NCBI GenBank assembly: GCA_052388515.1
Contig: JBQTHZ010000070.1
Coordinates: forward strand, 9,924-73,923
Direction of reading: 5' to 3'
Source of the DNA: Chloroflexota bacterium
GTDB lineage: Bacteria > Chloroflexota > Limnocylindria > QHBO01
Length of the DNA: 64,000 nucleotides
Positions within the stretch are counted from its first letter, which is position 1, and every line of letters begins with the position of its first letter. Shown piece by piece: positions 27,693-45,555 of the stretch. A program made the position numbers and the translations under genes. The notes beneath the pieces were generated by a model. It saw only the letters and a list, made by a program, of their open reading frames with translations. It did no database searches and was not told the origin of the DNA.

Positions 27693-29206
27693 CTGTCGTA
27701 CTCGTCGTCCTCGATGGTTTCGGACTCAACGATGACCCGTCGCGAAACGCGCTCCTATCGGCGTCGATGGGGAACTGGAATCGGCTCATCGGCGAATGGC
27801 CGCATTGCCGGCTCGAGGCATCCGGCGAGGCGGTCGGGCTGCCGGCGGGCCAGATGGGCAACAGCGAGGTTGGGCACCTGAACCTGGGGGCCGGCTTTCC
27901 GGTGCTCCAGGATCTACCGCGCATCAGCGCCGCGATTCGCGACGGCAGCTTCTTCGAGAACGAGGTGCTGGCTGGGATCTGCCGCGAGGTCTCGGCGAGC
28001 GGGCATCGGCTCCACCTCCTCGGCCTCGTCGGCCCCGGGGGGATCCACGCGGTCGACGAGCACATCGTTGCCATGGTCGAACTGGCGCATCGGTCCGGGA
28101 TCCCGCCGGATCGCGTGCTCTTCCATGCCTTCACCGATGGTCGCGACACGCCGCCGCGCTCGGCCGACCACCTCCTCCCCGCGCTCGAGGCTCGCTTCGA
28201 CGGGCGTGCCCGGGTGGCGACCGTGTGCGGGCGCTACTTCGCCATGGACCGCGACCGTCGCTGGGACCGGACCCGGCGAGCGTTCGACGCCATCGTCCAC
28301 GGTGTCGGGCTGTCGGCCAGATCGCCGTCGGCAGCCGTGAACGAGGCGTACGCGCGCGGCGAGGACGACGAGTTCATCCGACCTACCGTCCTCGGCGACG
28401 TCGTTCCCGTGCTGCCGGGCGACGTTGCCGTCCACCTCAACTTCCGCGCCGATCGCGCTCGCCAGCTGTCCCGAGCGCTCGCCATGCCAGGCTTCGACGC
28501 GTTCGACCGGGGATCCGCCGCGCCGATCCAGCTCGCGACGCTGACCGAGTACGAGTCGGGCGACGGCCTGGACGCTGCCGTCGCGTTTCCGCAGGCCGCC
28601 GCCGACTCGCTCGCCGCGCTGGTTTCTCGGCTCGGGATGCGGCAGCTGCACGTGGCGGAGACGGAGAAGTACGCCCACGTCACGTACTTCTTCAACGGTG
28701 GCGTGGAGGAGCCGTTCGCCGGCGAGGACCGCATCCTGGTTCCATCCAACCGGGAGGTCTCGACCTACGACCAGGCGCCGGAGATGCGCGCCGGACCGAT
28801 CACGGACCGCATCGTCGAGGCGCTCGATCGTCGAGAGCACGACATGATCGTCGCCAACTACGCCAATCCCGACATGGTCGGGCACACGGGCGTCTGGTCG
28901 GCAGCGGTGGAGGCGGCCGAGTTCGTCGACGGCTGCCTCGGCCGGCTGACGCGCGCCGCGCTGGGCGTGGGTGCCAGCCTGCTCATCACCGCCGACCATG
29001 GCAACATCGAGGAGATGCGCGATGCCGATGGGAAGCCGCAGACGAAGCACACGACCTCGCCGGTGCCATGTGTGCTGGTCGACGAGGCTCGGGCCGGTGT
29101 CCGCCTGCGCGACGGTGTTCTCGCCGATGTCGCGCCGACGGTGTGCGAGCTGCTCGGCATCCCGGGCGGGCCACAGATGACCGGCCGCTCGCTGCTCGAG
29201 GCCTGA
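27689..29206 (+). CDS. gpmI: 2,3-bisphosphoglycerate-independent phosphoglycerate mutase
   Basis: GTGA overlap with the tpiA stop. Motifs VLDGFGL and GNSEVGHLNLGAG. Length 505 aa. Confidence 0.95.
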   Translation: MTVVLVVLDGFGLNDDPSRNALLSASMGNWNRLIGEWPHCRLEASGEAVGLPAGQMGNSEVGHLNLGAGFPVLQDLPRISAAIRDGSFFENEVLAGICREVSASGHRLHLLGLVGPGGIHAVDEHIVAMVELAHRSGIPPDRVLFHAFTDGRDTPPRSADHLLPALEARFDGRARVATVCGRYFAMDRDRRWDRTRRAFDAIVHGVGLSARSPSAAVNEAYARGEDDEFIRPTVLGDVVPVLPGDVAVHLNFRADRARQLSRALAMPGFDAFDRGSAAPIQLATLTEYESGDGLDAAVAFPQAAADSLAALVSRLGMRQLHVAETEKYAHVTYFFNGGVEEPFAGEDRILVPSNREVSTYDQAPEMRAGPITDRIVEALDRREHDMIVANYANPDMVGHTGVWSAAVEAAEFVDGCLGRLTRAALGVGASLLITADHGNIEEMRDADGKPQTKHTTSPVPCVLVDEARAGVRLRDGVLADVAPTVCELLGIPGGPQMTGRSLLEA

Positions 29207-29233
29207 CGCGACCTCTGCTAGACTGCGCCGGCA

Positions 29234-29455
29234 ATGCAGACCCCTCTTCTTCTCGCCCAGATGATCCTGGCCATCGCGCTCATGGCGTCCATCCTGCTCC
29301 AGCAGCGCGGCACCGGCCTGGGTGGGGCCTTCGGTGGCGAGGTCACCGCCTATCGCAGCCGACGCGGGATCGAGCGGACCCTCTTCCGGATGACCGTCGT
29401 GCTCGCCGTCCTGTTCGTGGCCTTCAGCCTCCTCAATCTGCTGCCGCAGAACTGA
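29234..29455 (+). CDS. secG: preprotein translocase subunit SecG
   Basis: 73 aa with two TM segments and the LLQQRGTGLGGAFGG motif. TGcTAGACT (-10 at 29219-29224) lies 9 nt upstream of the ATG. Confidence 0.85.
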   Translation: MQTPLLLAQMILAIALMASILLQQRGTGLGGAFGGEVTAYRSRRGIERTLFRMTVVLAVLFVAFSLLNLLPQN

Positions 29456-29513
29456 GCGGATGGCCGTGCTATCATCGGCCCTCGCAATCGGAACTCGCTC
29501 CGAATGCGGCCGT

Positions 29514-29600
29514 GCCGAGGTGGCGGAATAGGCAGACGCGCTAGGTTCAGGACCTAGTGGCCGCAAGGTCGTGTGGGTTCAAGTCCCTCCCTCGGTACCA
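29514..29600 (+). tRNA. tRNA-Leu (anticodon CAG)
   Basis: Hand-folded cloverleaf. Acceptor GCCGAGG/CCTCGGT, anticodon arm CTAGG-TTCAGGA-CCTAG, long variable arm, T-loop TTCAAGT, encoded CCA. Confidence 0.9.
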
Positions 29601-29609
29601 CCCTTCTGG

Positions 29610-29694
29610 GCCCAGGTGGCGGAATTGGTATACGCGTACGTTTGAGGGGCGTATGAGGCAACTCATCCGGGTTCAAGTCCCGGCCTGGGCACCA
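29610..29694 (+). tRNA. tRNA-Leu (anticodon GAG)
   Basis: Acceptor GCCCAGG/CCTGGGC, anticodon arm TACGT-TTGAGGG-GCGTA, long variable arm, encoded CCA. Confidence 0.9.
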
Positions 29695-29714
29695 TTCCCC
29701 TTCTGAGACCGATG

Positions 29715-29741
29715 CGCCGCTCGCGCTCTGCGCGAGCGGCG
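29715..29741 (+). terminator. strong GC hairpin after the tRNA-Leu pair
   Basis: CGCCGCTCGCGC-TCT-GCGCGAGCGGCG with perfect 12-nt arms. No clear U-tract. Confidence 0.5.
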
Positions 29742-29851
29742 TCGCGCTCTCCGGCGGTGGATGGCACGATCGGCCGAGCGTGAGCACGCGCTCGACCCAC
29801 GCCTTGGAGGTGGACCCTCGAGACGCCCGTGATGCGTTCTGTCAACACATC

Positions 29852-29922
29852 AGGGATCGTCATCGCGTTAGGGATTGTCATCCGGCGATTGGGGATGGTA
29901 CTTTCGGCCCAGGATGGCATAG
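29852..29922 (+). repeat. direct repeats AGGGATyGTCATC (two near-identical plus two degenerate copies)
   Basis: AGGGATCGTCATC at 29852 and AGGGATTGTCATC at 29870 match at 12/13 positions. Weaker copies are GGGGATGGTACTT at 29891 and AGGATGGCAT at 29911. Spacing is 18-21 bp. Confidence 0.5.
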
Positions 29923-29929
29923 GCTCTTC

Positions 29930-29952
29930 CATCTGATTCTGCGGATCAGATG
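29930..29952. promoter_or_regulatory. palindrome CATCTGAT-N7-ATCAGATG
   Basis: Perfect 8-bp inverted repeat in the AT-richer spacer upstream of the ECF sigma gene. Confidence 0.35.
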
Positions 29953-30094
29953 CCGTCCTGAATGCCGCCTTCGACCGAGGAGGCATCCCGACCGATTCGC
30001 TCGATGGCCAAGCGAAGCTAGCGCATGATCTGAGACCCGTTGGGGGGCGGTGCGGCGGATGGCAATTCTCGAACGGCGGGGCACTCGTGCCAAG

Positions 30095-30757
30095 ATGAGC
30101 ACGGGTCAAGGCCATCGGGTGGCACTCGGGAGCAGCCACTCCCAGGCCACGGAACTTGTCGCCTCCAAGCCGCCAACAGTGATCGTCGTCACAGCAGGCG
30201 CAGACGGTGAAATCGGCCTCATCGAGCGAGCCAGATCCGGGGATGCAGAGGCGTTCGACGCGCTTGTCGCGATCCGGCTCATGCCCACATTCCGCCTTGC
30301 GCGCTCGATTCTCGGCGGGACGGAGGAGGCGGAAGACGCCACCCAGGAGGCCTTCATCGCCGCGTGGCGCGGCCTGCCCTCCCTGCGCAAACCCGAACGT
30401 TTCGATGCATGGTTCGGGCGCATCGTCGTAAACGCCTGCCGGATGAGCATGCGCCGGCGGCCTAGAACGGTCTTTCTTTCGATCGAGTCGATCAGTGATT
30501 TCCAGCCTTCGGCGGACGATCCTCGGCTCAGCGGGCTCGGCGACAGCGATGCCCTGAACCGCGCTATCGATGCGCTTCCCGTTCAGCAACGGGCGATCCT
30601 CGCGCTCTATTACCTCGAGGATCGACCTGTGTCGACCGTCGCGATGATCCTGGGGATCCCAACCGGCACCGCGAAGTGGCGACTGTCCCGGGCGCGCACA
30701 GCCCTCAGAAGGGCGATGGCTGCGGGCGATGGCAGCGCTTCGGTTCCTGCTCGATAG
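30095..30757 (+). CDS. ECF-family RNA polymerase sigma-70 factor
   Basis: Region 2 (EDATQEAFIAAWRGLPSLRKPERFDAWFGRIVVNAC) and region 4 (LPVQQRAILALYYLEDRPVSTVAMILGIPTGTAKWRLSRAR). Start is uncertain: ATG 30095 or in-frame GTG 30179. Confidence 0.88.
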   Translation: MSTGQGHRVALGSSHSQATELVASKPPTVIVVTAGADGEIGLIERARSGDAEAFDALVAIRLMPTFRLARSILGGTEEAEDATQEAFIAAWRGLPSLRKPERFDAWFGRIVVNACRMSMRRRPRTVFLSIESISDFQPSADDPRLSGLGDSDALNRAIDALPVQQRAILALYYLEDRPVSTVAMILGIPTGTAKWRLSRARTALRRAMAAGDGSASVPAR

Positions 30758-30936
30758 CCCTGCTCGGAAGCGGCGAGAGGAGCCTCGCCCGGCAAAGGTG
30801 TCGGCGCCGCTACCTGGAGATACTGCCTGGCCGATGGCGGCCTATCCAACCGACCGGCTCCCTTCTGCATCTACTCAGGCAGCAGGGTTTACCCGTCTGG
30901 GCCTCGAGATCGTGAGATCGGAGGCGAGCAGCAAGG

Positions 30937-31389
30937 ATGTCGCGGTTCACAGATCAGAACCTCCGGGTGGCCTTTCGTCTCCGAGCGGCGGGCCAGCCGC
31001 GTCCTGGCCTCCGCCAGCGCATTAGACACGCGACGCGCCCCGCACAAGAGCCGGAAACCGTCGCTGTCATCCATGGGACGGCACATCGCCGACCGATCCT
31101 CGCCCGATTCACCGCAATCGCAGCGGTTGCCGCCCTCCTGATCCTGGCGCCCCTGGTCGGTGCGGGGTCCGACCTTTGGCGAAGACCCGACCCGTCTCTC
31201 GGACAGCCGACCCCCGACGAGCGGACCGCGGTCGCCATCGCGTCTGCCATCAACGATGGCGAGGACGACGAGGGCGATGAAGAGGACGACGACGATGAAG
31301 GGGACGACGACGATGAAGACGACGAGGAGGACGACGACGACGAAGACGACGACGAAGACGACCCGGAAAAGTCCGAGGAGGACAGGTAG
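30937..31389 (+). CDS. single-pass membrane protein with poly-Asp/Glu C-terminal tail (candidate anti-sigma factor)
   Basis: 150 aa. A basic N-terminal ~50 aa is followed by a TM segment (ILARFTAIAAVAALLILAPLVGA) preceded by HRR (N-in). The tail is DGEDDEGDEEDDDDEGDDDDEDDEEDDDDEDDDEDDPEKSEEDR. GGAGG lies ~12 nt upstream of the ATG. The gene sits directly downstream of the ECF sigma gene. Confidence 0.65.
   Translation: MSRFTDQNLRVAFRLRAAGQPRPGLRQRIRHATRPAQEPETVAVIHGTAHRRPILARFTAIAAVAALLILAPLVGAGSDLWRRPDPSLGQPTPDERTAVAIASAINDGEDDEGDEEDDDDEGDDDDEDDEEDDDDEDDDEDDPEKSEEDR
31255..31386 (+). repeat. imperfect GAN trinucleotide (GAC/GAG/GAA/GAT) tract encoding the acidic tail
   Basis: 132 nt of almost uninterrupted GAN codons. 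This also generates the poly-Ser and poly-Thr artefact ORFs in other frames. Confidence 0.8.
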
Positions 31390-31426
31390 GCCCGTGCGGC
31401 CTGAGAGGGCGGAAACGCAACCAACC

Positions 31427-34400
31427 ATGGTGCGCGGGGTCGTCGCTTCGAGCGTGAGGTTCCGGCTGCTCGTCATCGGCATCGCAGCGGCGCTCATGCT
31501 GGTCGGTGCGACACAGCTGCGGAACGCACGCGTCGACATCCTGCCCGAGTTCAGTCCGCCGTACGTCGAGGTGCAGACGGAGGCGCTCGGCCTCTCAGCT
31601 GAGGAGGTCGAGGAGCTCATCACCATTCCTCTCGAGGCCGACCTCCTCAATGGGGTGGCGTTCCTCGAGGAGATCCGGTCGGAGTCGATCACCGGGCTGT
31701 CGTCGATCGTGATGACCTTCGAGCCCGGGACGGATATCTTCGAGGCTCGGCAGGTCGTCGCAGAACGACTTACGCAGGCGCACGCCCTCCCGAACGTGTC
31801 GAAGCCGCCGGCCATGCTCCAGCCGCTGGCGACCGAGAACCGGGTCATGATGGTCAGCCTCCGTGCGAGCGACCTGTCCCTGATCGACATGTCGGTACTG
31901 GCACGCTGGAACATCCGCCCCCGTCTCATGGGCGTTCCGGGGGTTGCCAACGTGTCTATCTGGGGCGAGCGCAACCGCCAGCTCCAGGTGCTGGTCGATC
32001 CGACTGAGCTCCAGGAGCAGGGGGTCACGTTGGGCGAGGTCATCACCACGACCGGCAATGCGCTGTGGGTCTCCCCGTTGACGTTCCTTGAGTCATCCAC
32101 GCCCGGTACCGGAGGCTTTATCGATACGCCGAACCAGCGATTGGGCATCCAGCACGTCCTGCCCATCCGATCGGCGGAGGATCTGGCGCGGGTCGTGGTC
32201 GAAACCGAGGACACAAGCCAGAGGCTCCGCCTCGGCGACATCGCAACCGTTGTGGAGGACCACCCGCCGCTGATCGGTGATGCGGTCGTCGGTGATGGAC
32301 ACGGCCTGTTACTGGTGATCGAGAAATTTCCCGGCGTCAACACCCTGGAGGTGACGCGGAGCATCGACGAGGCGCTTGCGGCGATGCTGCCAGGCCTGAG
32401 CGGCATCCAGATCGACACGACGGTGTTCCGACCGGCGAACTTCATCGAGGCCTCGATCGGCAACATCACGCTCGCGCTGCTGATCGGCTTCCTCCTCATC
32501 GCGCTGGTCCTCGGGACCCTCCTCTTTGACTGGCGAGCCGCCCTGATCAGCCTGATCACGATCCCGCTCTCCCTGGCGACCGCTGGGCTGGTCCTCCACT
32601 TTGCCGGCGCGACGCTGAACGTGATGGTCATGGCCGGATTGATCGTGGCCATCGGTGTCATCGTCGATGACGCCGCGACCAGCGTCGAGAGCGTCCTCGG
32701 TCGGCTCCGTAGGCCACAGGAGGGCGACGAGGAACGGACCCCAGCGGTACTCGTCACGCAGGCAGTCCTCGAAGGCCGCCGTCCGATCCTCTACGCCACC
32801 CTGGTCATCCTGCTGGCCCTCGTCCCGGTTTTTTTCATCGGCGGCACGGTCAGCGCGTTCCTGCCGCCGCTGGCCATCGCCTACGGGGTGGCAGTGCTCG
32901 CTTCGATGGCGGTCACGCTCACCGTTGCGCCAGCCCTGGCGGTCCTCCTCCTTTGGCGCGGTTCCGCGGCACGGCGCGAGTCGCCGATCCTGAGCCGATT
33001 GCGCGGTCATTATGGCGCCGCGCTGAGCTCATTTCTGCACCGCAGGCGACCCGGCCTGCTCACCGGCGGAGTCGCCGTGCTGGGCGTGGCCGCCCTCATC
33101 GGCCTTCTCGTGGTACCTCAGGCAAGCGGCTCCGCCTCTGTCTTGCCATCATTCAAGACCAACGAGCTGCTGATCCATTGGGACGGCGCTGCCGGTACAT
33201 CCCGACCCGAGATGGCCCGCATCGTCGGCCGCGCCACGCAGGAGCTCCGAACCATCCCCGGTGTCCAGAACGTGGACGGTCACGTCGGCCGAGCCATCCT
33301 CTCCGACGCGATCACCGACGTGAGCTCGGGCGAGGTCTGGCTCACGATCGACGGCACCGCCGACCACGACCAGACGATCGCCGCGATCAGCAACACGGTC
33401 GACGGCTATCCGGGTCTGGGCAGGGCGATCGTGACGTACCCGGAGGAGCGCATCAGCGAGGTCCTCTCGGGTAGCGAGCATGACGCGGTCGTTCGGGTCT
33501 ACGGCCATGAGTTATCGACCCTCCGTGATCGGGCCGAGGCGGTCCGCCAAGCGATAGCGGGCGTCGCCGGCGTTGTCGATGCCTCTGTCCTGGCTCCGGT
33601 CGAGGAGGCGGCCCTCGAGGTCGAGGTAGACCTCGAGGCGGCCCATGAGTTCGGCCTCAAGGCCGGAGACGTCCGCCGCGCAGCGACCACGCTGCTCTCG
33701 GGCATCGAGGTCGGCCTGCTCTTCGAAGAGCAAAAGGTGTTCGACGTCGTGGTCTGGGGCAAGCCGGAGCTCCGCACGAGCATCTCCAGCGTCGAGAACC
33801 TCATGATCGAAACGTCGGCAGGCGACCTCGTCCGCTTGGCCCAGGTGTCGGACGTGCGGATCGCACCCACGCCGAGTGTCATCACACGCGAGGGCGTCCG
33901 CCGGATCATGGAGGTCGGCGCGAACATCAGCGGCCGCGACGTCGGATCCGCGCTTCGCGATATAAACGTGGCGGTCGGCGCGGTCGAGTTCCCGCTCGAG
34001 TACCACGCCGAGGTGTTCAGCGAGGCAGCAAATCGAGAGGCGGCCCAGACCACGCTGCTGGCGGTGCTGGCTGGCGCGACGATCATGGTATTCCTCCTTG
34101 TCCAGGCGGTCGTCGCCAGCTGGCGTCTTGCGGCATTCGTCTTCGTCACCCTGCCGACGGCGCTCGTCGGTGGCATGCTGACCGCGTTTGCTGGAGGCGA
34201 GCTCGTCTCGATCGGTACGCTGGCAGGTCTCTTCGCGGTGCTCGCAATCAGCATCCGCACCAGCATCTCGCTCATCGATCACTTTCAGAACCTCGAGCGC
34301 ACGGGGTCGGCGCATGCATTCGGCCCGCAGCTGGTCCTGGCGGGCGCCCAGGACCGCCTGGGGCCAACCCTGATGACCGTGCTCGCGGCGGCCGTTGGCG

Positions 34401-34606
34401 TGGTCCCATTCATTGTGCTCGGAGAGGTCGCGGGCCTCGAGGTCGTACGGCCGATGGCGATCTTCGTCCTCGGCGGGCTGATCACCTCGACGCTGTTGAC
34501 GTTGTTCATCGTGCCCGACATCTATCTGCGCTCCGGTCCAAGCCCGCAGGCTGAGGCGGAGACGCTGTCGACTGAGCAGCCGGCCCTCGAGCCGACGATG
34601 GCATAG
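31427..34606 (+). CDS. RND efflux transporter permease, CusA/CzcA-like (paralog 1)
   Basis: ~1059 aa. N-terminus VRFRLLVIGIAAALMLVG..VDILPEFSPPYVEVQT, TM4 acidic relay VIVDDAATSVESV and 12-TM/two-loop architecture. An alternative GTG start is at 31394. Confidence 0.92.
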   Translation: MVRGVVASSVRFRLLVIGIAAALMLVGATQLRNARVDILPEFSPPYVEVQTEALGLSAEEVEELITIPLEADLLNGVAFLEEIRSESITGLSSIVMTFEPGTDIFEARQVVAERLTQAHALPNVSKPPAMLQPLATENRVMMVSLRASDLSLIDMSVLARWNIRPRLMGVPGVANVSIWGERNRQLQVLVDPTELQEQGVTLGEVITTTGNALWVSPLTFLESSTPGTGGFIDTPNQRLGIQHVLPIRSAEDLARVVVETEDTSQRLRLGDIATVVEDHPPLIGDAVVGDGHGLLLVIEKFPGVNTLEVTRSIDEALAAMLPGLSGIQIDTTVFRPANFIEASIGNITLALLIGFLLIALVLGTLLFDWRAALISLITIPLSLATAGLVLHFAGATLNVMVMAGLIVAIGVIVDDAATSVESVLGRLRRPQEGDEERTPAVLVTQAVLEGRRPILYATLVILLALVPVFFIGGTVSAFLPPLAIAYGVAVLASMAVTLTVAPALAVLLLWRGSAARRESPILSRLRGHYGAALSSFLHRRRPGLLTGGVAVLGVAALIGLLVVPQASGSASVLPSFKTNELLIHWDGAAGTSRPEMARIVGRATQELRTIPGVQNVDGHVGRAILSDAITDVSSGEVWLTIDGTADHDQTIAAISNTVDGYPGLGRAIVTYPEERISEVLSGSEHDAVVRVYGHELSTLRDRAEAVRQAIAGVAGVVDASVLAPVEEAALEVEVDLEAAHEFGLKAGDVRRAATTLLSGIEVGLLFEEQKVFDVVVWGKPELRTSISSVENLMIETSAGDLVRLAQVSDVRIAPTPSVITREGVRRIMEVGANISGRDVGSALRDINVAVGAVEFPLEYHAEVFSEAANREAAQTTLLAVLAGATIMVFLLVQAVVASWRLAAFVFVTLPTALVGGMLTAFAGGELVSIGTLAGLFAVLAISIRTSISLIDHFQNLERTGSAHAFGPQLVLAGAQDRLGPTLMTVLAAAVGVVPFIVLGEVAGLEVVRPMAIFVLGGLITSTLLTLFIVPDIYLRSGPSPQAEAETLSTEQPALEPTMA

Positions 34607-34617
34607 GAGCGATCGAG

Positions 34618-35046
34618 ATGAAGCGCAGCAGCGTGTGGGTGTTCACTGGCCTGGTGATCGTCTCGCTCATGCTGACGGGCTGCAGTGATCCGGCGGAGGC
34701 GCCTGCGGACGAGGCCATCCATATCGAGGAGCTCGAGTCGGGACTCAGCACGCTGACGCTCTCGGCCAAGGCAGCCGAGCGGCTCGGCGTGCAGACGACG
34801 GAGGTCGAGGATCGCGGCGCGCAGAAAGTCGTCCCGTACGCGTCGGTGATCTACGACGCGCAGGGCGCGACCTGGGCCTACGTGGCGACCGAGCAACTCA
34901 GCTTCGAGCGGGCATCGATCGTCGTGGAGGTGATCACCGGTGACGAAGCGATCCTGACCGATGGACCTCCTGCGGGTACTCCGGTCGTGATCGTGGGTGC
35001 GGCCGAGCTGTACGGTGCCGAGACCGGCGTCGGCGGCGGCCACTGA
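34618..35046 (+). CDS. lipoprotein resembling a truncated RND membrane-fusion (periplasmic adaptor) protein
   Basis: Lipobox LMLTGC. LTLSAKAAERLGVQTTEVE resembles an adaptor N-terminal strand. KVVPYASVIYDAQGATWAYVA..IVVEVITGDEAILTDGPPAGTPVVIVGAAELYGAE resembles an adaptor C-terminal segment. No room for lipoyl or alpha-hairpin domains in 142 aa. Confidence 0.75.
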   Translation: MKRSSVWVFTGLVIVSLMLTGCSDPAEAPADEAIHIEELESGLSTLTLSAKAAERLGVQTTEVEDRGAQKVVPYASVIYDAQGATWAYVATEQLSFERASIVVEVITGDEAILTDGPPAGTPVVIVGAAELYGAETGVGGGH

Positions 35047-35081: not shown

Positions 35082-38000
35082 ATGCTTCGGCTGATCATCG
35101 CCACCAGCCTGCGCTTCCGCTTCATCATCATCGCGGCGGCCGCCGGGTTGATGTTCTTCGGGCTCGGACAGATCCGGAACATGCCGGTCGACGTGTTCCC
35201 CGAATTCGCCCCGCCCAAAGTCGAGGTCCAGACGATCACGCTGGGGCTCTCCGCGGCGGAGGTCGAATCCCTGGTCACGGTTCCGCTGGAGCAGGCCCTG
35301 GCCGGCGTGGAAGGGCTGGACATCTTGCGCTCGAAGTCGGTCGCCCAGCTGTCCCAGATCGAGATGATCTTCAAGCCCGGCACGGACCTCCTGCGGGCTC
35401 GGCAGCTGGTCCAGGAACGCATCAACGGGATCACCGGCACGTTGCCGACATGGGCCAGTCCGCCGTTCATGATGCAGCCCCTCTCGGCAACGAGCCGGGT
35501 GATCAAGATCGGGCTCTCGTCGGATACTATCGACCTGCTCGACCTGTCGAGCATGTCGTACTGGACGATCCGCGCGCGCCTCCTGGGCGTGCCGGGTGTC
35601 GCCAACGTGATGATCTATGGCGAGCGCCTCGAGCAGATGCACGTCCAGGTCATCCCCGAGAAGCTCGAAGAGCATGGAGTTTCCATCGCCACGGTGATGG
35701 AGGCGAGCTCCGAGGCACTCGACGAGGGCATCCTGATGTTCTCGGATGCGAATGCCTTCGGGACCGGCGGCTGGATCGAGACCGCCAACCAACGGTTCAC
35801 CATCGTCCATCCGCCACCGATTCGCACTGCCGAAGATTTGGCCCACGTGGCGGTCCAGGGTCGTGACGGCAACCTCGTCGACCTCGATGAGCTCGCTCTC
35901 CTGGTCCGCGACCACCAGCCGCTCCACGGCGAGGCGGTGATCAACGACGGCCCCGGGATCATGCTCATCGTCGAGAAGTTCCCGTGGGCGAACACGCTCG
36001 ACGTGACCCGCGGCGTCGAGGCAGCGATGGAAGCCCTGAAGCCAGGAATGGTCGGAATCGAGGTCGATACCACGATGTTCCGGCCCGCGAGCTTCATCGA
36101 GATCGCGCTGACGAACCTGACCTCGGCGCTGCTCATCGGCAGCCTGCTGGTGTTCGTCGTCCTGATTCTCTTCCTGTACGACTGGCGAACGGCGCTGATC
36201 AGCCTGGTCGCGATTCCCCTGTCGCTCATGGCCGCGGCGATGGTGCTCTACCTGAGCGACGTCACCATCAACACGATGATCCTTGCCGGATTCGTGATCT
36301 CGGTCGGAGTGGTCGTCGATGATGCGATCATCGACATCGAGAACATCGTCCGCCGCCTTCGGCAGCATCGCCTGCAGGGGACCGGCGTCTCGACGGCGCG
36401 GGTGATCCTTGAGGCCTCGATCGAAGTCCGGAGCGCGATTGTCTACGCAACCCTCATCGACATCGTCGCGATCACCCCGGTGTTCTTCATCGAGGGCCTT
36501 TCCGGCGCCTTCTTCTTTCCGCTCGCGGTTTCCTACGGGCTCGCGGTCATGGCGTCGCTGTTCGTCGCGCTGACGGTCACGCCGGCCCTTGCCTACATCC
36601 TGTTGCGCAATGCGCCCATCGAACGCCATCGCTCACCGATCACGCAGCGGCTGCAATCCGCCTACGGGGGACTCGTGGCTGGCATCATCCGCAGCACGCG
36701 CCCGGTATTTGCCGCAGTCGGCGTCGTGAGCGTGCTCGGGCTGGCCGTCTGGCCGCAGCTCGGCCAGTCGCTCCTGCCAGACTTCAAGGAACGTGACTTC
36801 CTCATGCACTGGGTGGCGGCGCCGAGCACCTCGCATACGGAGGAGACGCGGATCACGATCGAAGCGTGCAACGAGCTGCGAACCATCCCAGGCGTCCGCA
36901 ACTGCGGTGCCCACATCGGCCAGGCGTTCCTCGGTGACGAACCCTACGGCATCGAGTTCGGGGAGAACTGGATCAGCATCGACCCGTCCGTCGACTACGA
37001 TGCGACTCATGCTGCCGTCCAGGAGGTCGTGGATGGCTATCCCGGGCTGCGACGGGACGTCCAGACGTATCTCAAGGAGCGCATCCGTGAGGTCCTGACC
37101 GGCTCGAGCGAGGCGATCGTGGTGCGGATCTACGGCCCGGATCTCCAGATCCTGCGCGACAAGGCCGCAGAGGTCGAGGAGGCTTTCTCGGCGATCCCCG
37201 GATTGATCGACCTTCATACCGAGCAGCAGGTCGACATCCCGCAGATCCAGGTCGAGGTCGACCTGGCAGCCGCAGAGGGATACGGGATCAAGCCGGGTGA
37301 CGTGCGGCGGGCGGCGGCCGCGCTTGTCGCGAGCGAGGAGGTCGGCGACGTGTTCTTCGGGGGACAGGCTTATGACGTCCACGTATGGAGCGTCCCCGAA
37401 GCCCGCAACAGCGTCAGCGACATCAAGCACCTGCTCATGGACGCCGCCGACGGCAGCAAGGTCCGCCTGGGTGAGGTCGCCGACGTGCGAGTCGCCGCGA
37501 CGCCAGGGCATATCAGCCACGAACGTCTTGCGCGCCGCATCGACGTCGAGGCCAACGTCGACGGGCGAGATCTCGGCTCCGTCTATCGCGATGTTGAGGC
37601 CGCCCTTGCGGGGGTCCGGTGGCCGCAGGAGTACCACCCCGAGCTTCTGGGCGAGTATGTCGAGCGCCAGGCGGCCCAGGATCGCCTGTTCCTGTTCGCA
37701 ATCGCCGCGGCGATCGGCGTGTTCCTCCTGCTCCAGGCTTCCTTCGGCAACACGCGGCTGGCAGTCCTCTCGTTCCTGACCCTTCCGTCGGCCCTGGTCG
37801 GTGGAGTGCTCGCAACGTGGATCGGGACCGGCGTGGTTTCACTGGGGTCGCTGGTCGGGTTCTTCACGGTCCTGGGCATCGCCGCCCGCAACGGGATCAT
37901 GATGATCAACCACTTCCAGCACCTGGAGCGCGAGGAGGGTGAGCCATTCGGACCCGGCCTCGTCATCCGTGGCGCACGGGAGCGGCTCGCGCCGATCCTC

Positions 38001-38222
38001 ATGACCGCCCTCGCAACGGGTCTTGCGCTGGTTCCGCTCGCGATCGCCGGGGATCGGCCCGGTCACGAGATCGAGCACCCGCTGGCGATCGTCATCCTCG
38101 GCGGGCTGATCACCTCGACGTTGCTGAACCTGTTCGTCGTCCCCTCCCTGTATCTGCGCTTCGGAAGGAGCAGGGATGGGCAGGACCGTCCCCGCAAGGT
38201 GGTGGCGGCAACAACCGTCTGA
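35082..38222 (+). CDS. RND efflux transporter permease, CusA/CzcA-like (paralog 2)
   Basis: 1046 aa with [34 protein letters not shown] and [13 protein letters not shown]. Collinear similarity to paralog 1 throughout. Confidence 0.93.
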
Positions 38223-40139: not shown

Positions 40140-40718
40140 ATGCCACCGTGGGCCATCATTCTGCTGATCGCGATCGCGGTCATCGCCCTTTTTCTGGTCT
40201 TCACCTACAACGGCCTGGTCCGGCTGCGGAACATGGTCGATGAGGCATGGAACCAGATCAGCGTGCAGTTGAAGCGACGGCACGATCTGATTCCGAACCT
40301 CGTCAACGCGGTCAAGGGTTACATGGACTTCGAGCAGGAAACCCTGACGAAGGTCATCGAGGCCCGATCCGCCGCCGTCAGCGCCCAGCAGGGCGGCCCG
40401 GCCAACGCGGCGCAGGCAGGGCAGGCCGAGAACTTCCTGACCGGCGCCCTCCGTCAGCTCTTCGCCCTGGTCGAGAACTACCCCGATCTCAAGGCGAACG
40501 AGAACGTGATGCAGCTCCAGGAGGAGCTCACGACGACCGAGAACCAGATCGGCTTCAGTCGACAGCACTACAACAGCACGGTCCGGGAGTTCAACACCAG
40601 CGTCCAGACGTTCCCGACCGTGCTCATCGCCGGGATGTTCGGCTTCCGCGAGCGCGACTACTTCCAGATCGCCGAGTCGGACGCCGCGGTTCCGGAGGTC
40701 AACCTGCGTTCGGCCTAG
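40140..40718 (+). CDS. LemA family protein
   Basis: N-terminal TM segment, then YNGLVRLRN and NYPDLKANENV motifs. GAGGAG SD and an upstream TGcTAGGAT -10 (40097-40102). Confidence 0.9.
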   Translation: MPPWAIILLIAIAVIALFLVFTYNGLVRLRNMVDEAWNQISVQLKRRHDLIPNLVNAVKGYMDFEQETLTKVIEARSAAVSAQQGGPANAAQAGQAENFLTGALRQLFALVENYPDLKANENVMQLQEELTTTENQIGFSRQHYNSTVREFNTSVQTFPTVLIAGMFGFRERDYFQIAESDAAVPEVNLRSA

Positions 40719-40722
40719 GCCG

Positions 40723-41697
40723 ATGACGGCCGAGGCGCGCCCGACGCCAACCACCTTCTATCGCGAGATCGATCGCAACCGGCGGCGGAGCTGGCTCCTC
40801 GTCGCGATCGTGGTCGTCGTGCTCGGCCTGCTCGGCGGCGCCATCGGCTACGCCACCGGCTTCGGTTGGGGCGGCGTGGTGTTCGCCCTGGTCGTTGCCG
40901 TGGTCATGAGCGTCGGAACCTTCTTTGCCGGCGACGCGCTCGTGATGGCCACCAGCGGCGCGCGCGAAGTCGATCGCGCCAGGCCGGCGGATCGGTATCA
41001 GCAGTTCGTCAACGTCGCGGAGGAGATGCGACTGGCGGGTGGGCTGCCGCCACCGCGCCTCTGGGTGATCGAGGACTCCGCCCCGAATGCCTTCGCCACG
41101 GGGCGCGACCCGGAGCATGCGTCCGTGGCGGTCACCACCGGACTGCTGGACAAGCTCGATCGTGAGCAGCTCCAGGGCGTCATCGGTCACGAGATGAGCC
41201 ACATCGGCAACCTCGACATCCGCTTCACGCTGCTGGTGGGGGTGCTGGTCGGGAGCATCGCGCTGCTCGCCGATTGGTTCCTGCGCTTCACGTTCTGGGG
41301 AGGCGGACGGCGCAGCAATGACTCGGAACGCGGCGGCGGCGGGGGAGCGATGGCGCTCCTCTTCATCCTCGCCCTCGTCCTGGCGGTGGTGGCGCCGCTC
41401 ATCGGCCGTCTCGTCCAGGCAGCCGTCAGCCGTACGCGAGAGAGCCTCGCCGACGCGACCGCGGTCGAACTCACACGCAACCCGGTCGGCCTCGCCCGTG
41501 CGCTCCGCACGATCAGCGACGATCGAGAGGTGCTCGAGGTCGCCAACCGAGCCACGCAGCACCTCTACATTGTGAACCCGATCAAGTCGTTCGAAGAGCG
41601 CGCCAAGTCGCTGTGGGACACCCATCCGCCGATCGGAGAGCGAATCCGTGCCCTCGAGAGCATCGCCGGACGGATGGGCCTTACGCCGTCCGAGTGA
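40723..41697 (+). CDS. htpX: M48-family zinc metalloprotease (HtpX-like)
   Basis: HEMSHIGNLD zinc motif and 4 TM segments. Typical LemA-M48 gene pairing. Confidence 0.9.
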   Translation: MTAEARPTPTTFYREIDRNRRRSWLLVAIVVVVLGLLGGAIGYATGFGWGGVVFALVVAVVMSVGTFFAGDALVMATSGAREVDRARPADRYQQFVNVAEEMRLAGGLPPPRLWVIEDSAPNAFATGRDPEHASVAVTTGLLDKLDREQLQGVIGHEMSHIGNLDIRFTLLVGVLVGSIALLADWFLRFTFWGGGRRSNDSERGGGGGAMALLFILALVLAVVAPLIGRLVQAAVSRTRESLADATAVELTRNPVGLARALRTISDDREVLEVANRATQHLYIVNPIKSFEERAKSLWDTHPPIGERIRALESIAGRMGLTPSE

Positions 41698-44781: not shown

Positions 44782-44982
44782 GGCGTTCCGCGGCGGATTG
44801 GATGGATCGCCGAGTATAGGGGGATGAGCCCGCTGTCACGACGCGGTCCTCTTCCGGTATACTGCCCGGGCGCCTCCAGGTCAGGGGGCGCGGCTCGCGA
44901 CGATGACCCGAGCCCCTTTCTGCCGCGTCTCCGGCGCCCGCCGCTGACGCCGCAATCCCAGAGAGAGGAGACGACGCCGATC

Positions 44983-45555
44983 ATGCGCCGTTACGAACTC
45001 ATGCTCCTGCTCCGCCCGGACCTGGAGGACGACAAGCTCCAGGCGGCCGTCGAGAAGGTCACCCGCGCCATCGTCAACGCCGGCGGCAGCCTGAGCAAGG
45101 TCTCGCCGTGGGGCAAGCGCCGCCTGGCCTACGACATCAAGCGCCACCGCGAGGCCAGCTACTTCCTGATCCACTTCGATATCGAGCCCTCGCAGGTGCG
45201 CGAGATCGAACGCGGCATGCTGATCAGCGAGGAGATCCTGCGTCACCTCGTCACCGTGCTCGAGGACCGCGGGCCTGCGGATGAGCTCGCACCCGCCGCG
45301 GTGGCGCGCAGCGTCGACGAGGACGGCACCGATGACGACGCCGGCACGCAGGGCGCGGTCTCGGCGGACGCGCCGGGCGCCAGCGCCACGGCCACGGCCA
45401 CAGCCGTCGCCGCCGATGCAGCCGAGGAGGAGCTCGCCATGTCCGACGATGCGTCGAACGACGAGGACACGAGCAGCGACACCTCTGACGACACGTCGGA
45501 CGACGAGGTCGAACGCGCGGCCGCGCCGGCCGACGAGGAGCGCGCCGAGGCCTGA
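44983..45555 (+). CDS. rpsF: 30S ribosomal protein S6 with long acidic C-terminal extension
   Basis: Start MRRYELMLLLRPDLEDD is preceded by GAGAGAGGAG. The S6 core is ~95 aa, followed by ~95 aa of D/E/S/T/A-rich tail. Confidence 0.9.
   Translation: MRRYELMLLLRPDLEDDKLQAAVEKVTRAIVNAGGSLSKVSPWGKRRLAYDIKRHREASYFLIHFDIEPSQVREIERGMLISEEILRHLVTVLEDRGPADELAPAAVARSVDEDGTDDDAGTQGAVSADAPGASATATATAVAADAAEEELAMSDDASNDEDTSSDTSDDTSDDEVERAAAPADEERAEA

Follow-up and report, generated by a model that had tools for sequence, protein, structure and literature searches.

The 64,000-nt stretch of DNA analysed here, referred to as the window, comes from an uncultured soil and freshwater bacterium of the phylum Chloroflexota and has a G+C content of ~68%. 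It contains an uninterrupted open reading frame (ORF) whose product ends in a long run of aspartate and glutamate residues, and this ORF, called the acidic-tail gene below, is the subject of our analysis. On the forward strand, the order of features is two tRNA-Leu genes, a gene for a sigma factor of the extracytoplasmic function (ECF) type, a gap of 179 bp, the acidic-tail gene, a first resistance-nodulation-division (RND) permease gene (RND1), a lipoprotein gene, and a second RND permease gene (RND2). The coordinates of these features and of the parts of the acidic-tail protein are given in Table 1. An Rfam search over positions 29000-32000 returned the two tRNA-Leu genes and nothing else. 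Related loci are referred to by L numbers and related proteins by P numbers.

Table 1. Positions of the genes, protein segments, and candidate promoters discussed in the text; positions are those of the window unless a locus is named.
Feature	Position	Strand	Basis
Candidate sigma-70-like promoter, TTGTCA-N18-TACTTT	29875..29904	+	Precedes the sigma gene; L001 and L003 conserve it; resemblance to consensus only
ECF sigma gene	30050..30757	+	Pfam Sigma70_r2 4e-14 and Sigma70_r4_2 1.5e-11; TIGR02937 sigma70-ECF, 79 bits (cut-off 42.9)
Candidate ECF-type promoter, CCAACC-N15-GCATC (equivalent to AAC-N16-GCATC)	30846..30871	+	65 nt upstream of the acidic-tail ATG
Acidic-tail ORF, 150 aa	30937..31389	+	ATG to TAG, uninterrupted
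Residues 1-52, cytoplasmic module (predicted)	30937..31092	+	Two AF2 helices, conservation, weak NF052375 matches
Residues 53-76, single transmembrane helix, N-in/C-out (predicted)	31093..31164	+	Hydropathy, AF2
Residues 77-105, variable juxtamembrane linker, 29 aa, PxP motif	31165..31251	+	dN/dS, AF2
Residues 106-150 and stop, extracytoplasmic polyanionic tail (predicted)	31252..31389	+	Composition, repeat, AF2
RND permease 1	31427..34606	+	Pfam ACR_tran 8e-168; start set by agreement with the L012 and L015 homologues
142-aa lipoprotein, lipobox LTGC, putative miniature RND periplasmic adaptor	34618..35046	+	AF2 pLDDT 84, Foldseek
RND permease 2	35082..38222	+	Pfam ACR_tran 1e-208
Long-form partners	L007 6001-7014; L010 732-1802; L013 277-1290; L014 695-1411		N-terminal module and transmembrane helix

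The acidic-tail gene and its product

Judged by sequence comparison, the acidic-tail ORF is a real gene, since homologues at 30-92% identity preserve its reading frame. The start of the protein (MSRFTD) and an upstream GGAG are conserved. In comparisons with the window, the ratio of nonsynonymous to synonymous substitution rates (dN/dS) lies between 0.4 and 0.6 in the cytoplasmic part and is ~1 in the linker. When residues 1-108 were used in a word-indexed search, five homologues with 56-92% identity were retrieved, two of which are annotated as hypothetical proteins of Candidatus Limnocylindria, phylum Chloroflexota. Only 26 relatives came out of an HMMER profile search that exhaustively covered 1.84 billion cluster representatives, and a scan of one genome per GTDB species, using a narrow alignment, detected one locus, in a metagenome-assembled genome (MAG) of an uncultured member of the Chloroflexia. 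About 22 of the relatives are short forms like the protein of the window, and all of these come from MAGs or metagenomes of Chloroflexota (class Limnocylindria). The other relatives, too, are known from MAGs or metagenomes. The family is, so far, confined to an uncultured class.

Two other readings of the ORF were rejected. An antisense ORF encoding poly-serine (30954-31424) has no claim to be the real gene, as conserved homologues are found in the forward frame only. The ORF could also have been what remains at the 3' end of a longer class I anti-sigma gene that begins inside the 179-bp gap and has suffered a frameshift. This was discarded because the relatives all begin with MSRFTD and because the frame-0 residues of the gap are homologous to a C-terminal extension of the sigma factor at other loci.

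The N-terminal 52 residues are basic, with 11 Arg versus 3 Asp/Glu. An AlphaFold2 (AF2) model was built from an 18-sequence alignment for the isolated chain, and its mean predicted local distance difference test score (pLDDT) of 63 indicates modest confidence. In this model, helix 1 (residues 6-17) and helix 2 (residues 25-33), both with a pLDDT of ~75, are joined by a G19-x-P21 turn, and the module closes with RRPIL at the membrane boundary. This N-terminal module, with the motif TDxxLRAAFxxRAxGxPxPxLxxRI, is the best-conserved part of the protein. R16, G19, P21, R28, and I29 never vary across 21 short and long forms, and A12, A17, and L25 are nearly invariant. As read from the alignment of the 21 sequences, the conserved residues lie on one face of each short helix. 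We propose that residues 1-52 are the part that binds the sigma factor.

The module is followed by a single transmembrane (TM) helix. The Kyte-Doolittle maximum for a 19-residue window is 2.38, HRRP stands just before the hydrophobic stretch, and AF2 places the helix at residues 52-74 with a pLDDT of 70-81. An N-in/C-out topology is predicted because of the charge distribution, the N-terminal side being net positive, and because the long forms described below carry Pro/Ser linkers and six conserved, disulfide-type cysteines after the TM helix. In the linker, P91, P93, and A100 are invariant among the six closest members, and AF2 predicts with low confidence a short hydrophobic helix, ERTAVAIASAI, at residues 93-102.

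The tail consists of 24 Asp and 13 Glu, thus 37 acidic residues out of 45. Among six-frame ORFs of at least 60 aa in the window, it is the sole segment with at least 60% Asp/Glu over 30 residues. AF2 assigns it no secondary structure (pLDDT 53-62), so it is predicted to be disordered, and the whole ectodomain of 74 aa lacks a folded domain in the model. The protein has no cysteine, and therefore the HxxxCxxC zinc-binding motif is impossible. These results agree with the first-pass annotation, made from the DNA of the window alone, which had described a basic N-terminus, one TM helix in N-in orientation, an almost purely acidic C-terminus, and the lack of HxxxCxxC.

At the DNA level, the tail is encoded by an imperfect array of GAC/GAN triplets, which Tandem Repeats Finder reports with a period of 3 and 34 copies at 31260-31362. 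A tail rich in Asp/Glu is retained in 21 of the 22 short forms, down to ~30% identity, with a length of 23-73 aa and an ectodomain net charge of -12 to -48. The remaining short form (P0012, 101 aa) is perhaps a fragment. Neither the sequence nor the length of the tail is conserved among the short forms, and positional homology is absent. Values of dN/dS for the tail are 0.1-0.4, with synonymous sites near saturation; as the tail alignment is unreliable, these values are indicative at best. The other frames of the array would encode Arg/Gly with stops or runs of Thr/Lys/Arg, and such products were seen in no relative.

The sigma gene, its partner module, and the pump cassette

The order of sigma gene, gap of 100-200 bp, acidic-tail gene, and RND gene was found in nine of the nine short-form loci read (the window, L001-L006, L008, and L012). 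A sigma gene lies directly upstream on the same strand in all of these and also in the long-form loci that have upstream DNA. The first-pass annotation had placed the acidic-tail gene where anti-sigma genes normally sit. This was not borne out for the short forms, where a gap containing an apparent target promoter of the sigma factor takes the place of a co-transcribed or overlapping arrangement.

More distant relatives (P0023-P0030) share only the N-terminal module and the TM helix with the short forms. Their ectodomain is different and spans ~250 aa, with a Pro/Ser linker followed by a ~200-aa domain that has six invariant cysteines, a GHFDD motif, and a weak SH3_3 signal. The ectodomain at L014 is of a third, unrelated type that is rich in beta structure and ~140 aa long. 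No Pfam family was found for either type of long-form ectodomain. The ectodomains that are joined to the N-terminal module are, therefore, of at least three different kinds. An overlap of 4 bp (ATGA) between the long-form gene and the sigma stop codon is seen in L007, in L010 and its twin contig of 11.8 kb, in L013, and in L014. Where downstream sequence exists (L007 and the 11.8-kb contig), no pump follows the long-form gene and genes for GreA or a tRNA synthetase are found instead. The sigma factors of L007, L010, and L014 are 56% identical to that of the window over the core, and the partner modules are 31-40% identical.

A candidate ECF-type promoter was found in the gap between the sigma gene and the acidic-tail gene. 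ECF promoters typically have a -35 element containing AAC and a short C/G-T-C -10 element at such a spacing. The pattern AAC-N16-GCATC has a single match in the window, against 0.25 expected, and is invariant in a five-locus alignment. Apart from L012, every sigma-bearing locus that includes the relevant upstream DNA has the strict motif exactly once, and no other copy was found in 136.7 kb on both strands; L009, L011, L013, and L016 lack the relevant upstream DNA and are outside this count. L012 keeps the relaxed pattern CAAAC-N16-GCATC. Eight short-form loci have the strict motif between their sigma and acidic-tail genes, and every acidic-tail locus carries the motif in this interval, 65-90 nt before the ATG. 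In three long-form loci, it is found 75-90 nt upstream of the sigma gene, which is the classic autoregulated arrangement. The motif is absent upstream of the pump in two loci that lack the sigma gene (L015 and L017), and no match was found between the tRNA genes and the sigma gene of the window. A simple scan detected no intrinsic terminator between the sigma gene and the acidic-tail gene, and no sigma-70 promoter on the forward strand.

Three observations support the conclusion that the N-terminal module probably belongs to the sigma factor and not to the pump, as far as sequence comparison goes. The module is reused with other ectodomains beside the same sigma subfamily, whether or not pumps are present; the pump cassette exists without the acidic-tail gene; and the promoter-like motif goes with the sigma subfamily. 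Because of this linkage, the sigma-less cassettes, and the placement of the motif, the acidic-tail gene and the pumps probably make up the regulon of the sigma factor.

In the cassette, the gaps between the acidic-tail gene, RND1, the lipoprotein gene, and RND2 are 37, 11, and 35 nt, and RND1 is probably in the same operon as the acidic-tail gene. The closest solved relatives of the permeases are ZneA (371 bits for RND2 and 286 for RND1) and CusA (296 and 239 bits, respectively). Multidrug pumps rank lower, at no more than 240 and 184 bits. The lipoprotein has no sequence match in Pfam or the PDB. With its AF2 model, the top Foldseek matches in the PDB are all periplasmic adaptors (AcrA, SilB, CusB, ZneB, and MexA), with a probability of ~1.0; they cover one domain of ~57 aligned columns at 1.1-1.9 Å, with E values of 3e-3 to 5e-2. 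As modelled, the protein resembles an adaptor in miniature that lacks both the hairpin and the lipoyl domain. At least 843 members belong to its family compared to ~26 clusters for the acidic-tail family, making it ~30 times larger.

The cassette of RND, lipoprotein, and RND genes was found without a sigma gene or acidic-tail ORF in two Limnocylindrales MAGs (L015 3762-12603 and L017 5016-11424). In L015, the upstream position is occupied by divergently transcribed genes for a HisKA_3 histidine kinase and a GerE-type response regulator. This locus is an apparent case of a regulator swap, with an ECF pair or a two-component system on one pump cassette.

Several features of the sigma gene and of the DNA flanking the motif were seen in the course of these comparisons. 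The conserved sigma2-sigma4 core begins at about residue 55, near position 30212, and the true start of the sigma gene is uncertain because conservation is poor over the N-terminal 50 aa. A stretch of ~350-500 nt (29695-30210) separates the tRNA-Leu genes from the conserved core and holds a GGGAT(C/T)GTCATC direct repeat and the poorly conserved, basic N-terminal extension of the sigma ORF. At its other end, the sigma ORF of the window, L001, and L002 stops ~25 codons before those of the other loci (30735-30845 in the window). The lost extension can be read in another frame, as KRREEPRPAKVSAPLPGDTA compared to ...RLRPAEAPVPLSGDSA* in L012. As the shorter protein and the readable out-of-frame extension show, a poorly conserved tail after sigma4 was lost and the gap was lengthened to 179 bp by a lineage-specific frameshift. 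In L001 (4960-5010) and L002 (250-300), 25 nt (TTTCTGCATCAAATCAGGCAGCAGG) are duplicated in tandem, so that the -10-like element and the beginning of the leader are present twice; the first copy retains the spacing to the AAC element. The 5' leader itself (30872-30936) is well conserved as DNA (TCAGGCAGCAG...CCCGTCTGG...GATCGTGAGATYGGAGRCGAGC). An RNA element is not proposed for it, given a weak consensus fold (-2.8 kcal/mol) with few covarying pairs.

Comparison with described anti-sigma systems and proposed function

Among described systems, the closest in layout is CnrY/CnrH with the cnrCBA pump of Cupriavidus metallidurans (class II; ECF291/ECF20). The cytoplasmic domain of CnrY has 45 aa and forms a two-helix clamp around sigma2 and sigma4 (PMC6851896, PMC6101532), and cnrYXH is transcribed from the CnrH-dependent promoter cnrYp (PMC6851896). 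Like CnrY, the acidic-tail protein is a single-pass protein with a short cytoplasmic domain (52 aa compared to 45) and a short extracytoplasmic C-terminus. In both systems, an ECF sigma gene adjoins RND efflux genes and the anti-sigma gene, or candidate here, stands behind a sigma-dependent promoter, which in our case is assigned by motif. The two helices predicted by AF2 in residues 1-52 are what the description of class II specifies. The systems differ in that no CnrX-like sensor protein is encoded here, leaving the acidic tail as the sole outside part. The gene order also differs, with sigma gene, promoter, and then the putative anti-sigma gene and pump, so that the sigma gene is apparently not autoregulated. 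The host belongs to the Chloroflexota, and the pump comes with a 142-aa mini-adaptor and without an outer-membrane factor gene.

The class I anti-sigma domain is a three-helix bundle with a fourth helix (PMC6101532). The acidic-tail protein resembles class I in being a membrane-anchored partner encoded beside an ECF sigma gene and in its modular, variable ectodomain, and the long forms show the typical gene overlap. In contrast to class I and its zinc-binding anti-sigma members (RsrA, RslA, ChrR, RsiW, and RseA), it has two short helices within 52 aa and no HxxxCxxC. None of the 21 members has a match to a Pfam anti-sigma domain, and what Pfam did return were scattered single matches of no value.

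Two further systems offer parallels for the tail. RsgI of B. subtilis is a single-pass anti-sigma factor with a disordered extracytoplasmic region that is conserved in composition and not in sequence, as is the tail (PMC9732909). It is the disorder of this region that matters, since scrambled or foreign disordered regions still work (PMC9732909). RsgI pairs with sigma-I, which is not an ECF sigma factor, in contrast to the ECF sigma factor found here. RsgI also has a conserved, autocleaved juxtamembrane domain of ~140 aa and a disordered region of ~157 aa with mixed polar and charged residues, both of which are absent here. PhoQ detects divalent cations, pH, and cationic peptides electrostatically with a periplasmic acidic patch (PMC4473727). 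The extracytoplasmic acidic cluster is what the tail shares with PhoQ, to which it is unrelated in sequence, fold, and output. Full-text literature searches found no described anti-sigma factor with a polyacidic ectodomain, which is not proof of absence. By the sequence tests used, the protein appears to fall in no described anti-sigma class.

Our preferred reading is that the acidic-tail protein is a membrane-anchored anti-sigma factor of the neighbouring ECF sigma factor with a cation-sensing tail, and we give this full statement a probability of roughly 0.45. Its first half stands on firmer ground: the protein is likely to be a partner of the sigma factor and this partner is probably inhibitory. 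The anti-sigma reading is supported because the N-terminal module travels with one ECF sigma subfamily and is absent from sigma-less pump cassettes, and because the two predicted helices match the description of class II as exemplified by CnrY. The first-pass annotation had put forward the same idea from gene position, and this half of it gains comparative support from the occurrence of the module with one sigma subfamily and at least three ectodomains, and from its absence where the sigma gene is missing. The analysis shows the anatomy of the protein, the conserved module and acidity of the tail, the linkage to one sigma subfamily, the independence from the pump cassette, and the location of the promoter-like motif; binding to the sigma factor, inhibition as opposed to activation, co-transcription with the pumps, and the kind of signal that the tail would sense are inferred.

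The proposed mechanism is as follows. The cytoplasmic N-terminus, with its two amphipathic helices and Gly/Pro turn, would bind the sigma factor and hold it at the membrane. The sigma gene would be transcribed from its own upstream promoter, and the putative target promoter at 30846-30871 would drive the acidic-tail gene, RND1, the mini-adaptor gene, and RND2. Induction would then yield the pump and more inhibitor jointly, resulting in negative feedback. The disordered polyanionic tail, as the sole outside part, would be the sensor. Multivalent cations, such as metals exported by the pumps, may bind the tail and neutralise or collapse it. Alternatively, cations may displace Mg/Ca bridges that tie the tail to the envelope. 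The sigma factor could be freed by a change that the single helix transmits, as in CnrX/CnrY, or by exposure of the linker to proteolysis followed by intramembrane cleavage.

A number of points weigh against this reading. Cation sensing is read from the composition of the tail and its gene neighbourhood, and from linkage in the genome an inhibitor cannot be told apart from an activator or a tether. Both pumps fall below the cut-off of the TIGR00914 family of heavy-metal efflux (HME) pumps, with 419 and 538 bits compared to 701. The classical motif in TM helix 4 of CzcA is DFG-DGA-VEN. By eye, and without a formal alignment to CzcA, TM helix 4 of the pumps reads VDDA..(V/I)E(S/N), with IGVIVDDAATSVES in one of them, and seems unlike that motif. 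The earlier description of the pumps as CzcA-like, therefore, holds as far as ZneA and CusA are the closest solved relatives and fails at the family cut-off. The assignment of the candidate promoter at 30846-30871 is based on the motif only. It is unusual for sigma and anti-sigma genes to be separated by a gap that contains a promoter, and the arrangement would fit an ordinary regulon member too.

The searches for known anti-sigma domains also weigh on this side. A profile of the 21 modules had no match to CnrY, NepR, or any solved anti-sigma factor among all PDB chains at E values up to 10. A match to ribosomal protein S8 (E ~0.5) came through the string P-x-D-L-x-x-RI-R-x-AT and was taken as chance. 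All 21 N-terminal modules match the NCBIfam family NF052375 ('anti-sigma factor') weakly, at 15-28 bits compared to a cut-off of 100 and with a best E value of 1e-5. The window protein scores 21.4 bits, and L014, with 28.1 bits, is the best among the six relatives listed. The match spans profile positions ~44-105, leaving the first ~45 positions without a counterpart. Composition may drive part of the score because the match covers helix 2 and the TM helix. Seven of the modules also match NF038083 ('CU044_5270 family') weakly. The first-pass annotation had not recognised the architecture from described anti-sigma classes, and at the sequence level this was a fair statement in light of these scores and of the lack of a Pfam or PDB match, CnrY included.

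The tail itself gives evidence in both directions. In near-identical strains, it is 45 aa in one case and 54 aa in another, and the triplet array must be regarded as unstable because the tail length differs even at this distance. The preservation of acidity despite the unstable array points to selection on charge and not on sequence. It had been stated beforehand that homologues without the tail, or with tails of random length, would speak for neutral slippage. On length, this went against the sensor, as the tail varies freely; on the retention of a strongly negative tail, the expectation of a conserved feature was upheld.

The strongest of the alternatives, unlikely as it is, keeps the protein as an anti-sigma factor and has the tail, as a disordered polyelectrolyte, respond not to metals but to envelope conditions, be it gaps in the wall, surface charge, pH, polyamines, or cationic antimicrobial peptides. 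Such a role is played by the disordered region of RsgI for wall defects and by the acidic patch of PhoQ for divalent cations, pH, and cationic peptides. The RsgI precedent fits a tail conserved in composition and not in sequence or length (PMC9732909). The substrate of the pumps is uncertain; with scores under the HME cut-off, they could be exporters of organic cations or amphiphiles. Genes associated with membrane stress, for LemA and an M48 peptidase, are nearby. However, nothing like the autocleaved domain of RsgI is present in a protein whose 45-aa, almost purely anionic tail follows a 29-aa linker, and metal exporters are the solved proteins to which both pumps are closest.

That the protein acts on its sigma factor positively or neutrally is distinctly improbable. 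It would then be a membrane tether, a pro-sigma factor required for sigma activity like the N-terminal part of FecR for FecI, or a scaffold between the sigma factor and the pump. All of the evidence for a partnership is linkage and co-divergence, which are silent on regulatory sign, and an inhibitor placed solely under the factor that it inhibits, with the sigma gene not autoregulated, would be an unusual circuit. However, negative feedback by an anti-sigma factor made from a sigma-dependent promoter is standard, as for cnrYXH (PMC6851896). In addition, the long-form pairs show the classic overlap of sigma and anti-sigma genes behind the motif, and the weak profile matches go to an anti-sigma family.

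A role outside sigma regulation is just as improbable. The protein would be a pump accessory or regulon member, a membrane-anchored polyanionic 'sponge' that gathers or buffers cations on the outer face of the membrane and feeds them to the RND pumps, in a role like that of periplasmic metal chaperones. Co-transcription with the pumps is probable, given the short distance to RND1 and the promoter-like motif upstream, and the tail resembles low-affinity, high-capacity cation binders. Against this stand the occurrence of the pump cassette without the acidic-tail gene and the ~30-fold smaller family compared to that of the lipoprotein. Furthermore, the best-conserved part of the protein is its cytoplasmic N-terminus and not the part outside, and the N-terminal module is fused to unrelated ectodomains beside the same sigma subfamily where there is no pump.

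The least probable alternative, in which the tail is a functionless by-product of triplet slippage on a short anti-sigma-like protein and the signal enters elsewhere, draws on the period-3 array and on a length (23-73 aa) that differs in near-identical strains without positional homology, but against it stand the 21 of 22 short forms that keep an in-frame tail rich in Asp/Glu with a net charge between -12 and -48, the residues that stay Asp/Glu while synonymous sites are near saturation (in an unreliable alignment), and the lack of products of the other reading frames in any relative.

Returning to the anti-sigma factor with a cation-sensing tail, a bolder version of it can be stated, which we regard as doubtful. 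The tail would be a receptor without a folded sensor or a partner sensor, reading the concentration of multivalent cations at the membrane surface through neutralisation or collapse of the polyelectrolyte. The module would represent a fourth, unclassified way of holding a sigma factor, and ECF and two-component control would be exchanged on the same cassette.

ECF sigma/anti-sigma pairs are among the commonest bacterial signalling devices, and for most of them the input is unknown. The system described here has about as few parts as possible, namely a 52-aa binding module, one helix, and a 45-aa charged tail. Should the tail be the sensor, an anti-sigma factor would need no folded domain to perceive its signal, and a synthetic peptide and a three-gene circuit would suffice to study it. 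The locus would also supply a candidate orthogonal set of sigma factor, promoter (AAC-N16-GCATC), and anti-sigma factor, as well as an example of regulator swapping, in which an ECF pair and a two-component system alternate on a single pump cassette. Of interest, too, is a miniature RND adaptor in Chloroflexota, the envelope architecture of the phylum being still debated. If the tail is dispensable, what is left is a small, new family of anti-sigma factors from an uncultured class, useful for annotation and unsurprising.

Neighbouring genes

A LemA-family gene and a gene for an M48 (HtpX-like) peptidase lie at 40140-41697 on the forward strand, ~2 kb downstream of the pumps. The pair is also found near the cassette in L002 and L015. 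The idea that this pair processes the acidic-tail protein is pure speculation.

Farther downstream on the same strand, an ORF for ribosomal protein S6 (44824-45555, 243 aa as listed) has an acidic C-terminal extension of ~100 aa that is rich in Ala, Asp, Ser, and Thr. It also has an N-terminal extension of ~55 aa, which is possibly spurious. The Asp/Glu density of the acidic extension is below that of the acidic-tail protein.

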